A program made the translations under genes and the position numbers. Under the pieces are notes generated by a model that had not been told where the DNA came from, did not search any database, and saw nothing but the letters and a program-made list of their open reading frames with translations. This document shows positions 2,212-57,130 of a stretch of DNA of 64,000 nucleotides, piece after piece. Location: positions 42,718,001 to 42,782,000 of the forward strand of contig OX597825.1 in the NCBI GenBank assembly GCA_951406725.2. The letters are read 5' to 3'. How positions within the stretch are numbered: the stretch's first letter is position 1; the number at the start of each line of letters is the position of its first letter. The DNA is from Octopus vulgaris. Lineage: Eukaryota.

Positions 2212-3156
2212 AAACATTTTTAAAATGAGCATCATAGAAGTGTATCATTTTATAAATGTTGTTTTCTTATGGATTTATTTGTCATACATTGTGAAACCAG
2301 GTGATAGAGTGGTAAAGATGCTGGTCTCTCAGCTAAATATTAGAATGTATATATCACTGCAGGCATACCATATTTTCAAGTGTATATATAAATCTTGCTA
2401 CATCTTAACTGAATTGGCTATGATTCTGTCTTTTGAATAAGAAAGGTGAGATATAGTAGGTAATTAAGTAAACATAACTCTATAAGAACTATACATGATT
2501 GATATTCAACTTCAGTTTTACTGCATCTTGCAAAATGCATAATGTATAATTGATTTTTGCCATTAATTAGATATAAAACAATCAACAGGCATAACCAATC
2601 ATTAATCTATCAGCAATCTGAAGACTATACACTACTCATGAAAACTTTCCAGCCAAAAGTATTTTGACTGTTTGAGCATAAACATCAGCAGTCTCACATT
2701 AATCTGTATGATATTGTTGAATTTAGGACCTTTAGGTTCTCATGCTGGTAGCCACGTGTTTATGTTTCTTGAGATATGAGTATGATTTCTATACTCTTCT
2801 ATTTTTGTGGGGACAAAGTACATAAGTATTATACTGATGTATTTTTCTATTCAAATTGATTTGTGATGTGTTGTATAGTATTTTGCTAAGGACCCTTGTT
2901 TTAAAATCATGGTGATCTTACAAGAAAGAATTGTACTTGCACAGCCAATATAACAGCTGAAATTCTGAGGTTGATTTGTTTGACTAAAACCCCTCATGGC
3001 AGTGCGCAGGCCTGGCTGCAGCCAAATGACTGAAACAAGACTGTATATATATATATAAACATTTTTAAAATGAGCATCATAGAAGTGTATCATTTTATAA
3101 ATTTTGCTTTCTTATGGATTTATTTGTCATACATTGTGAAACCAGGTGACAGAGTG
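2212..3156 (+). repeat. ~100-bp local direct duplication (2212-2310 copied at 3057-3156)
   Basis: aaacatttttaaaatgagcatcatagaagtgtatc...gtgaaaccaggtga(t/c)agagtg occurs twice with a few substitutions; the second copy abuts the HHR element at 3155. Confidence 0.85.
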
Positions 3157-3820
3157 TCTTGCCTGCCTATGTTCTGGTGTTCGCTGAATTTTCTCTGGAG
3201 AACATTCTTTCTTTGTAGTTAGATCGTATGTGATCTACTTCTAGCATATGGCTGTCCACATAGTGGTTTTTTAGCCCTAAATATACACATGTATTGGAAT
3301 TTTCTCTGAATTTTCAGATTTTTATATGCTAGGCTACTGGTTTTAAATTGATATTAATTAAATTAATATTCAATTTATCTCCCTCATTATTTAAATGTTA
3401 AAATAATTATGTTTTCTAATAGGCAGCATTAACTGCAGTAAATTATTTACTGCAGAATTGTTTCTGGAATTTAGTGTGCCAGAACTCAGACATTTGAAAC
3501 TAACCCCAAGGTAATCTGTAGAACTAAGCACGTGTCTGGTCTTATACAGTAAACTAGTGGTTAGTTTTACAAATTATATTGTTTTTGGAACGATCGTGCT
3601 GATGAATCTACGGACGAAGGATTACGTAAGTAATTTATTTGGTAATAGACAAAACCGGTATATGATTAATTCTTGATTTTTGTATAATTTTCATCTGTCT
3701 TGCCCGCCTATGTTCTGGTGTTCGCTGAATTTTCTCTGGAGAACATTCTTTCTTTGTAGTTAGATTGTATGTAATCTACTTCTAGCATATGGCTGTCCAC
3801 ATAGTGGTTTTTTAGCCCTA
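3155..3820 (+). mobile_element. Non-coding HHR-bearing retroelement (Penelope pLTR/retrozyme-like), ~1.2 monomers of 541 bp
   Basis: Direct terminal repeat 3155-3279 = 3696-3820 (period 541); internal HHR; alignable by eye to 29572-30118; ends in TA-rich repeat. Confidence 0.75.
3593..3666 (+). ncRNA. Type I hammerhead ribozyme motif, degenerate (GAAA>AAAA)
   Basis: Stem I atcgtg/tatgat, CTGATGA, stem II (a)tcta/taga(c), aAAA, palindromic stem III accggt, cleavage triplet GTA. Confidence 0.7.
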
Positions 3821-6114
3821 CATATATACATGTATATATATATATATATATGTACACTCATAAAAATATGTATATACATAAATGTGTTTGAGTGTGTGTG
3901 TGTGTGTGTGTATAAATGCAATCCAGGGATATAAGAGTGGGAAGTAGTGAGTGGCAGGTGTAGAGAACAAAAAGTGAACTGTATATGATAAAAAATAAAA
4001 AATTTTTGTCATCAAGAATTTCACACTTTTTCTCATGTCAAAGTTGCAAGGAAATTCAATAATCTGATAGTTTCTATATAGCTTACAGTTAGCAACAAGA
4101 ACTGCTAAAAATGCGAATAAAAATCCAAATTGAGGGAGTGGAACAGTTAAAATGCCTGCAGCATAGCTCTCTTTGCTATTAGCTGGCTGAAGATCATGAT
4201 GTTATTGTTATACAATGCGCTATGCTTAATGTAGCTAATCATCAGGCTGAGATTATGTTAATGAAATGAAGGTGACATTGATGCCCAGAATTTTAAAGTC
4301 AGCCATACCATAGTGGTGAGTTTAACTGAATAGAAAAGCCAGCAGGAAAAAAATAAAAAAGAAACAAGAAGTAGATTAAGAGAAACAATGAGCAATAAAG
4401 CAAAGGGTAAGACTGAAATGGTGTGATTTATAGTAGCATACAAGACACCAGTACACTGATGTAAACTCTGTCATCTCTTGAATGGAAGTTTATGACTACA
4501 ATACTTTCCCCTTGATAGCAATCCTCTTTTTTCTTACCTCTTTCCTTCTTTTTATCCTTTTCTTCCAACTCCTCAACTCTAAGTCACACCCACTCTTGCA
4601 TAGTGCTCAATGGTTCTCCTAACCTACTTCTTGATTTTTGTTTTTTCTTTATTTTTTACCAATGGATTTTCTATTCAGTTGAACTCAGCACTAAGATGTG
4701 ACTGACAGAAATTCCAAGCAACAATGTAATATTCACTTCATTAAGGCAGTCTCAGCCTGATTAGCTACATTGAGCATAGCCCATTGCATAGCAATTACAT
4801 TACAAGCTACTAACATATGTTGCATGCATTTTACCTGCCCTTTCCCTCATTTTGGATTTATATATATATACAAAAAACATCTGTGAAGTGATTATTTTTT
4901 TAATAAAAAATCACGACAATGTAGTCTTAGTCAAAACAAATTGCTTGTCTTTAGGCTTTTCAACTACACAAGTGGTTTACGTATGTTATATTGATAAAGG
5001 TCTTACTATAGAGCTGTTTCTATTGCATGATCCAAGATTCAAATTTTACTCTGCTTACATGCAGACCACATGTGTATAATTCAGAAATATGTAAGCATAT
5101 ATGTATATTTATATTGCATATAAATTTGTGTGTGTATTTATATATATATATATATATATATATATATATATGAAATAATAATAATAACAAGAATGGAGAA
5201 AATCGTATTTTTGATTGCTTCTTTTGTGTCAGCATATTTAGATACAGAAAAAGGTATATGTAGTAAATGCATTTGGGATTTTAAAAGATAGGAAAATTAA
5301 CTATGATATAAAGTGGTCCATACTGGTTAATTTTAAATGTGATCTTTGCTTTGAGGAAATGTATTACATAATTACTTCTAAATTAGTATTATTGAATTGT
5401 AGAAATAATTTTACATTAAAATGTTCTCATAAATATAGAAAAGCTTTTAAATATTTCTACAGTAAATAATCCATGAAATGCTTTTTCCATAATCTAATAT
5501 GTATAAGTTTTCTTTAAAACCATTTTAAAACAAATTTAATTGACAGATAACTAATGGTCGTGATGTAGAATTTCTATATTTCTAATTGTTATGATGTAGA
5601 ATTTGTGTTATTTTTTATTCTTTCATTATCTACTGAAATTGTCTAAAGTTAAATACTAAATTGGCTTTTCTTAGAATATTGAGTTTCTTCTTAACATTTT
5701 CTTTGTATGAGTTTGTCTATTAGAGATATTTTCTTAGTACACTTTCAGTTTTGCCCATTTTGACTTGCCTTGACGATGTTGTTAGCATATATTTTTGGAT
5801 ATATTTATTAGAGTGGTATTTTATACCTTTTTCTGTATCTAAATATGCTAGTACAATAGAAATTAATTTTCGTAATGTATGGTGTAATGTCTCCATTCTT
5901 GTTCATGTTGTTAGTTAATCCAGATTTTTTAAAATTTTTCTTAGCAATCTTTGGATCTACTTGTCATACATGAAAAATTAGTTTGAACGTTAATTTTCCT
6001 TGAATTTATTGGTATCTGATTGTTTGATAAAGTTAACCAAATTTATTTATCACTGAGTGCTTTATAGATATCTGCATGGATTTATTAGTTGCTTTTACTT
6101 CTTACATACACACA

Positions 6115-56300: not shown

Positions 56301-56412
56301 TGACTGGGTCTCCGTGTCAGTGGTACGTAAAAAGCACCATTCGAACGTGGTCGATGCCGGTGCCGCCTAACTGGCTCCCATGCCAGTGGCACGTAAACAG
56401 CACCCACTACAC
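53325..56412 (+). mobile_element. RTE-clade LINE, near full-length, decayed, with inverted 5' segment (53325-53620)
   Basis: Minus-strand APE N-terminus (TVNVGT..IQEVR..DGV); plus-strand APE C-terminus (ICNTNFRK, QIDFIL), QFGFVPGRST, FVDLEKAFDRV, HQGSTLSPLLF, LLYAGDL and a Cys-rich finger; 3' UTR repeats. Confidence 0.88.
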
Positions 56413-57130
56413 GATGTGTCCAGGGGGTTTATCCTTAATTTCCGCTAAGGTGTATTTTGTAAAATGTGTGCTTGAGAAATAATCTTGCTCCTGGTATTTA
56501 CATAGTTTTTGGAGGGCCTTAAGTTTTTCAAAATGATATAGTTTTTCGAGCTAGCATATGGAACATCTTTTTGATGTAGGGCCAGATGTAAGCCCTATAC
56601 TAACGGCAGCGGAAGGTGCGGTCTATGCAACATGGAGAGATGGCTTATCTGGAAAAGCAGCTTAGACCCTACTACATGTCTAAATACAAGGACAGAGCTT
56701 TTCGGATCATGCCCACATGTGACTAAATTTCTGTTACGTTTTTGGTCCCCTAAAGAAAACAGATAGAACATGCTTTCTATGTTATGTCCCAAGAAGAATT
56801 TATATATTTTTATATATTTTTATATATTTTTTATATATTTTTTATGTATTTTTATAAAATTTTTATGACGAAAAATGCGAGCGATGTATAAGTACGCAGG
56901 CAAGCAGAGTTATAACAGAGTAATTTCCCTTTATTTAACGATATTTTTTCATAACGTTTTCAAATAGCCAGATAACCGAAGAGATGGTGTTGTGGATTTC
57001 CACTTGGGCATCTGAAACTCAGAGTTTTATCTTGACTACCGAGTAATGTAACATATTGTATAGATAAATTTCCTCTATTTACATAATATTGAGGTCTCTT
57101 TCTTTCTTTTGTTATCTTACCGTTTTATCA
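56413..57130 (+). mobile_element. Penelope-like element 3' fragment (GIY-YIG C-terminus + pLTR with HHR)
   Basis: 56587-56766 reads CKPYTNGSGRCGLCNMERWLIWKSSLDPTTCLNTRTELFGSCPH...*, matching the PLE endonuclease tail C-x2-C-x2-E...LN-x-R-x-E...C-x-H; HHR ~200 bp downstream; ends in (TA)n. Confidence 0.8.
56970..57032 (+). ncRNA. Type I hammerhead ribozyme motif, variant or degenerate core (CCGAAGA)
   Basis: Stem I agataa/ttatct, CCGAAGA, stem II gatg/catc plus an extra T, GAAA, stem III actc-a-gagt, GTT. Confidence 0.65.

Follow-up and report, generated by a model that had tools for sequence, protein, structure and literature searches.

Six loci with hammerhead ribozymes occur in a 64-kb stretch of the Octopus vulgaris genome (contig OX597825.1 of assembly GCA_951406725.2, positions 42,718,001 to 42,782,000), here called the window. 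Four of them are non-coding repeats, probably pasted into TA microsatellites, (TA)n, by enzymes of Penelope-like elements (PLEs) acting in trans; the locus at 56970 is the end of a protein-coding Hydra-clade PLE, and that at 19920 is likely an older end of this kind. The original prediction, made from the letters of the window, had joined all six into one non-autonomous family, a grouping that must be given up. The window (33.5% GC) is rich in TA runs and belongs to a 2.8-Gb genome; positions are those of the window.

Eight type I hammerheads are present at the predicted places: 3593, 19920(-), 28868, 29496(-), 29779, 43626(-), 44068 and 56970. A relaxed type I descriptor (stem I of at least 4 bp, CYGANGA, stem II, GAAA, a near-palindromic stem III, TH), tuned after the motifs had been seen, gives eight matches in the window, at 20001(-), 28876, 29565(-), 29785, 43682(-), 44074, 56976 and 48950, compared with a mean of 0.02 and a maximum of 1 in 100 block-dinucleotide shuffles of the window. 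The motifs thus exceed chance by far. Seven of the predicted motifs are among these matches, together with an unlisted one at 48946; the motif at 3593 is missed because the window copy has AAAA instead of GAAA. A first, strict descriptor recovers only 28868 and 48946, and fails at most sites because the base of stem II is mismatched, as it is in most families. The Rfam search that had been proposed as a check gives no hammerhead match at E ≤ 1 in the window and none at the gathering score in seven loci. The type I core (CUGANGA, GAAA, a UH cut site and three helices) is found in family copies of all six loci, with the window copy at 3593 missing it by one base. Stem II measures 30–68 nt between the core halves across families. 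These extensions had been called unusual: they are longer than those of the Hydra hammerheads in File S2 of PMC8557442, but only three of six fold better than shuffles at p < 0.05.

The four non-coding families, F492, F546, F563 and F541, have units of 492–563 bp with 33–39% GC and longest ATG frames of 34–66 amino acids. Genome searches give 1140, 1277, 1346 and 3201 candidates, respectively (candidate totals, not copy numbers, with about 40 scored per family), and full-length matches are 98–100%, 97–99%, 93–96% and 83–93% identical. The high-copy, non-coding nature predicted for these four loci is thereby borne out. Direct-repeat periods in the window are 541, 492 and 551 bp, and 546 bp is the unit length in genomic arrays; F563, with its 551-bp period in the window, has units of 562–567 bp in other copies. 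F546 and F541 are homologous (~73% identical), and F546 and F563 have common 3′ regions (p = 0.003); in the same 3′ end comparison, F492 shows no significant likeness to the other units. The stem differences between loci had been taken as covariation, but differences between unrelated families are not formal covariation; between F546 and F541, two double-sided and one single-sided change are seen by eye in the 6 bp of stem I. (TA)n surrounds the copies, many of which form tandem arrays, with as many as ~10 units, plus an inverted arm. Those of F492 are spread over many contigs, with arrays, inverted arms and (TA)n at the flanks. Each tandem unit in the genomic arrays of F492, F546 and F563 contains a complete type I hammerhead; the F541 tandem unit was taken from locus L094, where the hammerhead is decayed.

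The insertions carry the footprint of PLEs: a tail, an inverted 5′ arm and a microsatellite target (target-site duplications are unreadable inside (TA)n). In every family there are two fixed 3′ positions, a short end and a long end, at which copies stop and TA follows; the gap between them is 105–108 nt for F492 and F546, ~92 nt for F563 and F541, ~70 nt for the Hydra element and 34 nt for a Neptune-type PLE described below. In two-armed insertions with TA at both ends (overlapping loci removed, and one duplicate row dropped for F546, L202 = L061), one short end is paired with one long end in 14/16 cases for F492, 17/17 for F546, 8/9 for F563 and 2/2 for F541, or 41 of 44 for the non-coding units pooled, where about half would be expected if ends were chosen independently; the loci counted are top matches to the queries and not a random sample, and young copies are favored. 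The young Hydra element (18/19) and the 19920 family (2/2) follow the same rule, and only one of two Neptune insertions obeys it. Tails and inverted arms are known marks of PLEs (PMC8557442). Work in vitro with a PLE protein showed cleavage and extension on both strands of DNA, with reverse transcription initiated at two internal positions of the RNA; these positions define the tail in the genome (PMC11167929). By analogy, the two fixed ends, one per arm, fit these two start sites. The assignment of the hammerheads to the PLE type, already part of the original prediction, agrees with both the type I architecture and this footprint. The long ends of F492, F546 and F563 lie ~10 nt past a strong predicted hairpin followed by CCCT, which could possibly act as a structural start signal. 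Two short palindromes adjoin TA runs at 47849–48105 and 19544–19703, the former with a motif in common with the 3′ regions of F492 and F563; both are likely very short two-armed insertions.

In the window, the F492 copy is a two-armed insertion in (TA)n at 28247–29098 (+ strand; repeats, genome search, end mapping), with an inverted arm (28247–28476) leading to the long end and a direct arm (28483–29098) leading to the short end. Its hammerhead, at 28868–28974 (+; descriptor, folding), is intact, with a stem II of 68 nt, a self-complementary stem III of 12 nt and a predicted cut after 28966. The F546 insertion occupies the same TA run, at 29339–30133 (+; repeats, genome search), with an inverted arm at about 29339–29571 and a direct arm at 29568–30133. 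It has an intact hammerhead with an A-C mismatch at the base of stem II at 29778–29855 (+; family variants, descriptor) and another on the inverted arm at 29496–29571 (-; repeats, descriptor). The two-armed F563 insertion in (TA)n, at 43430–44404 (+; repeats, genome search), similarly holds an intact hammerhead at 44068–44130 (+; variants, descriptor, folding), with U-U at the base of stem II and a self-complementary stem III of 10 nt, and one on the inverted arm at 43626–43688 (-; repeats, descriptor). The pairs 29496/29779 and 43626/44068 are each the inverted arms of one insertion. F541 is represented by 1.26 units of an older 541-bp non-coding repeat that ends in (TA)n (3155–3835, +; repeat comparison, genome search); ahead of it stands a 100-nt copy of the local flank (3057–3156 = 2212–2311). 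The F541 hammerhead, at 3594–3670 (+; motif, family variants), is decayed, with AAAA for GAAA and two G-U pairs in stem I, and the other 13 of the 14 variants displayed (17 matches overall) have GAAA. At no window locus are two same-strand hammerheads found in tandem, which means that double cleavage could not free an RNA of unit length from any of them, and the window copies are likely dead ends.

A GCGC-N(1-16)-TTTGAA pattern with a CACGTG or CTCGTG word lies upstream of the hammerhead in all four units (e.g., 28774–28798). The first part, picked after the fact, is present in 0.3–1.2% of shuffles per unit; the arrangement may resemble E2F/CHR promoter sites. At 42843–43440, a 309-bp duplication joins another palindromic element and part of the F563 inverted arm.

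The locus at 56970 differs from these. By its frame and motifs, it comes from the 3′ terminus of an autonomous PLE of the Hydra clade, present as a 5′-truncated young copy at 56580–57131 (+; genome search, frames, motifs), with the last ~60 codons of the open reading frame (ORF; stop at 56764–56766), the 3′ untranslated region (UTR) and the long end onto (TA)n. Upstream of its relatives there is a reverse transcriptase (RT)/endonuclease frame; the family is 98–100% identical among 150 scored matches, five of them with open frames of 717 amino acids, and the locus, as the 3′ end of such a frame, does not belong with the non-coding units. The element has a single ORF in a unit under 3 kb, inserts into (TA)n and has its hammerhead in the 3′ region. 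The protein displays, by eye, RWK, DKT, a CxCX5C linker and C-terminal CxxC and CxH, the motifs that mark the Hydra clade (PMC8557442), and on these an assignment to Neptune was rejected. Its N-terminal ~400 amino acids are colinear, again by eye, with Hydra-1_Obim. A Pfam scan of the ORF gives no family; a homology search gives 1022 relatives at E ≤ 1e-20, the best 52% identical. The hammerhead (56970–57032, +; family variants, descriptor) has a U4C core, CCGAAGA, in 31 of 33 matches (overlapping loci included). Single core changes had been predicted at 3593 and 56970, and both are there: the former is a private decay, the latter is family-wide. A copy-specific change in stem III at 19920 went unlisted. 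An old Hydra-like RT fragment, 32–45% identical to the young element, lies at 24234–24625. Elsewhere, L196:5030-5584 and L202:4124-5860 belong to other Hydra families, with the start of the ORF head-to-head with a short inverted hammerhead arm; that of L196 is, by eye, nearer to Hydra-1_Obim.

At 19775–20512 (-; genome search, extended loci), an older family, likely of Hydra type (4092 candidates, 87–93% identity), is represented by a truncated 3′ end; its copies have a common 3′ region of at least 1.4 kb. The window copy is truncated and inverted on its 5′ side: the segment 20260–20498 is reversed with respect to other copies, with TCAGA microhomology at the junction. Its hammerhead (19919–20008, -; motif, variants, descriptor, folding) has a U-U mismatch at the base of stem II and a copy-specific change that disrupts the stem III palindrome. 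Among seven extended loci no full element was recovered; two (L200, L203) have a decayed Hydra RT or endonuclease fragment on the arm of the hammerhead. From these remains, the family is probably an old Hydra-type element or was derived from such an element by deletion, and the locus would be its end.

All six loci could instead be fragments of pseudo-long terminal repeats (pLTRs) of autonomous PLEs, with the arrays arising later through local DNA amplification. This would fit 56970 and probably 19920, so that the refuting case named with the original prediction, units that are simply pLTRs of autonomous PLEs, applies to one locus, and probably two, of the six. A route from pLTRs to satellites has been proposed (bioRxiv 10.64898/2026.07.22.740005), and rare coding copies could escape when the best 40 of more than 1100 candidates are scored per family. 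However, the F492, F546 and F563 units are followed by (TA)n, by an inverted arm or by a further unit, the nearby PLE fragments are separate insertions, and a single insertion can have multimers in both of its arms, with a proper PLE end on each. For the six loci as a whole, this origin is improbable.

Mobilization in trans calls for a partner enzyme, and two types of PLE come into question. In addition to the Hydra element, a young Neptune-type PLE (L234, L236, L239; G000:C9:55713500-55723499 and others) occurs with a tandem unit of 4426 bp and many open frames of 784 amino acids among 150 scored matches. The protein has a Pfam RVT_1 match and a sub-threshold GIY-YIG match; ORF1 overlaps the 784-amino-acid RT/GIY-YIG frame at a run of T, possibly a frameshift. 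This PLE has a U3/A8 hammerhead core, a 34-nt tail and a TA target. Three further Neptune subfamilies were found, and ORF1 is open in at least four subfamilies. The units resemble Neptune in the hammerhead junction and the end word. They resemble Hydra in the mismatch at the stem II base (U-U or other, as in published Hydra hammerheads; PMC8557442 File S2), in the longer tail and in the end rule. We give a Neptune enzyme an even chance of being the partner; a Hydra enzyme is possible, with a smaller chance, and another enzyme is quite unlikely. Two leads were abandoned. A Neptune ORF1 beside an F541 end at L093 was dropped after four Neptune subfamilies were found to lack unit-like UTRs, and a look-alike of the tail led to a ~450-bp hammerhead-less repeat (L241-L270; 1475 candidates), the last ~85 nt of which resemble the F541/F546 tail. 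The start of this repeat is presumably like that of a non-autonomous Helitron.

The arms cross the predicted cut site repeatedly, up to ~9 times, and therefore the template would be an uncut multimer or a circle, or template jumps would rejoin the copies. Two F492 units are separated by 1.09 substitutions when they lie in one arm (68 pairs), by 2.06 when they lie in different arms (16) and by 4.85 when they come from different loci (736), which favors a presumed single template lineage per insertion. Whole units folded as circles give z values of −3.4 to −6.3 (40 shuffles each), and strong folding would equally be expected of a structured linear RNA. In the strictest form of circular copying, the hammerheads would cut out the unit, ligation would give a ~500-nt circle, and each insertion would be copied round that one circle from two starts. 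The repeated passage of the cut site, the much lower variation within arrays than from locus to locus and the good folding of the units all agree with it, as do the circles known for retrozymes of coral, mussel and axolotl (PMC7229834). But arrays L031, L032 and L033 hold variants common to some units only, and the arms of L034 differ at three sites common within one arm; a single monomer circle predicts neither. Moreover, autonomous PLEs are tandem too, with the Neptune unit repeating at 4426 bp, and the main template in vitro is uncut RNA (PMC11167929). We consider copying from one such circle a serious possibility, somewhat short of even.

The variants in these arrays and arms also weigh against the mobilization in trans of ribozyme-processed units as set out here, and so do, besides the selective counting and the Neptune pairs mentioned above, the following points. 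In blastn comparisons, the units have no UTR homology with the three further Neptune subfamilies and, among the matches listed, none with the other loci collected; across one Hydra and four Neptune families, no parent PLE was found. When the ends of the units are compared with those of Hydra or of the first Neptune family, one of 24 tests has p < 0.01 (F546 vs. Neptune, p = 0.002). In vitro, one of nine Xenopus retrozyme dimers was cleaved (bioRxiv 10.64898/2026.07.22.740005), and the hammerhead is dispensable for insertion (PMC11167929). F492 is covered, and F546 in part, by contigs from four presumed RNA runs, but such contigs cannot show strand, ends or circles and are not counted as evidence of expression. 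The predicted folds of the monomers are mostly without the active structure. On the supporting side, stem III of the family sequences forms no stable monomer hairpin and has dimer energies of −6.6 to −13.6 kcal/mol; from the self-complementary stem III and the misfolding monomers, cutting as a dimer is therefore predicted, as has been proposed for hammerheads with a palindromic helix III (PMC4209133).

It may also be that no cutting takes place in vivo and that the hammerheads are kept because they serve the PLE enzyme as structures for protein binding or as start sites. Young families have fixed departures from the canonical core (U4C in Hydra, U3/A8 in Neptune), the stem II base is mismatched in most families, and low activity has been reported in vitro (PMC4209133). 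Yet canonical cores and a self-complementary stem III are kept across the non-coding and many flanking families, the U3-A8 exchange has a precedent as covariation within a core pair (PMC4209133), and protein-assisted cleavage has been demonstrated for a PLE hammerhead (PMC11167929). We regard the loss of cutting as unlikely.

With ribozyme cutting and PLE enzymes acting in trans, the following course may be proposed. Tandem arrays elsewhere in the genome would be transcribed into multimers, in which two hammerheads would pair through the self-complementary stem III and cut slowly, perhaps helped by a PLE protein; some monomers would be ligated into circles. The PLE endonuclease would cut both strands of (TA)n, and the two DNA ends would prime reverse transcription, one at each fixed internal RNA site, so that the arms would face in opposite directions, one stopping at the short end and the other at the long end. 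Where an arm exceeds one unit, it could come from copying an uncut multimer or from going round a circle, which appear about equally probable. More tentatively, a PLE dimer might copy one ribozyme-made circle from two non-interchangeable start sites, one for each cut end of (TA)n, the same rule holding for Hydra and for its non-coding parasites, which would be recognized by a hairpin-plus-spacer structure without likeness to a pLTR, possibly under a shared E2F/CHR-like internal promoter; taken as a whole, this extension is doubtful.

Among the other features of the window, the extra hammerhead-like motif at 48946–48993 (+) has a canonical core and is found by both descriptors. Its stem III dimer is weak (−1.1 kcal/mol), and no relatives occur among the best 40 candidates scored in a search dominated by another repeat. 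About ten more hammerhead families, at L002, L039, L040, L056, L057, L061, L103, L111, L165, L176, L180 and L181, were met by chance in flanks, many of them two-armed in (TA)n. Remains of Helitron Rep/PIF1 helicases, in opposite orientation and 96–97% alike, occupy 6897–9345 and 49044–51005. Endonuclease/RT remains of the long interspersed nuclear element type lie at 12690–15200 (flanked by two very long TA runs), 30280–30957 and 53906–59818.

Animal tandem repeats with type I hammerheads are described as non-LTR retrozymes, for which PLEs are the proposed drivers (PMC7229834), and a derivation of retrozymes from PLE pLTRs, with units of 51–972 bp, has been put forward (bioRxiv 10.64898/2026.07.22.740005). 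The class and its PLE origin are thus published, and an octopus Hydra PLE with hammerhead is catalogued (PMC8557442, Files S1/S2). In the giant squid genome, 235 Hammerhead_1 matches are reported (PMC6962438). We found no description of cephalopod retrozyme families in the literature, although closed supplements or repeat databases could hold one. The units share with animal retrozymes the non-coding, low-GC tandem organization with one type I hammerhead each, and the dispersed high copy number alongside PLEs. At 492–563 bp, they are longer than the 170–400 nt of the invertebrate retrozymes of 2020 (PMC7229834) and within the 51–972 bp range of the later preprint. They differ also in their long stem II and in the two-arm, two-end footprint, which is unreported in the available parts of these two sources. 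For some animal retrozymes, expression and circles are known; the units here are known from DNA sequence.

The 56970 element is like other Hydra-clade PLEs in its single ORF, size below 3 kb, RWK, DKT and CxCX5C motifs, (TA)n target and 3′ UTR hammerhead (PMC8557442). Compared with Hydra-1_Obim, it has another hammerhead sequence and a U4C core, and about half of the residues differ by eye; its family is young and abundant, and Hydra-1_Obim is noted without a pLTR (PMC8557442). Like the hammerheads of PLE pLTRs, those of the window are of type I, with a palindromic helix III and an extra or mismatched base at the start of helix II, whereas their helix II extensions are longer and their carriers mostly non-coding (PMC4209133). 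With Poseidon of Anolis (PAc), the elements have in common two internal start sites defining the tail, an AT-rich target and a hammerhead upstream of the ends. Their tails, 92–108 nt in the units, ~70 nt in Hydra and 34 nt in Neptune, compare with 30–40 nt in PAc, and the pairing of one short with one long arm is unstated in the available part of that source (PMC11167929).

The four retrozyme-type units, the autonomous Hydra PLE end and the probable older end are thus ordinary members of described classes. What is added is that the autonomous Hydra element obeys the same one-short-one-long end rule as the non-coding parasites. The proposal that PLEs mobilize animal retrozymes has so far drawn on their co-occurrence and on likeness to pLTRs. 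In this genome, young families of retrozymes and young PLEs of the Hydra and Neptune types, the latter with long open frames, form natural enzyme-template pairs, with which mobilization in trans, and a circular vs. a linear template, become testable in vitro.

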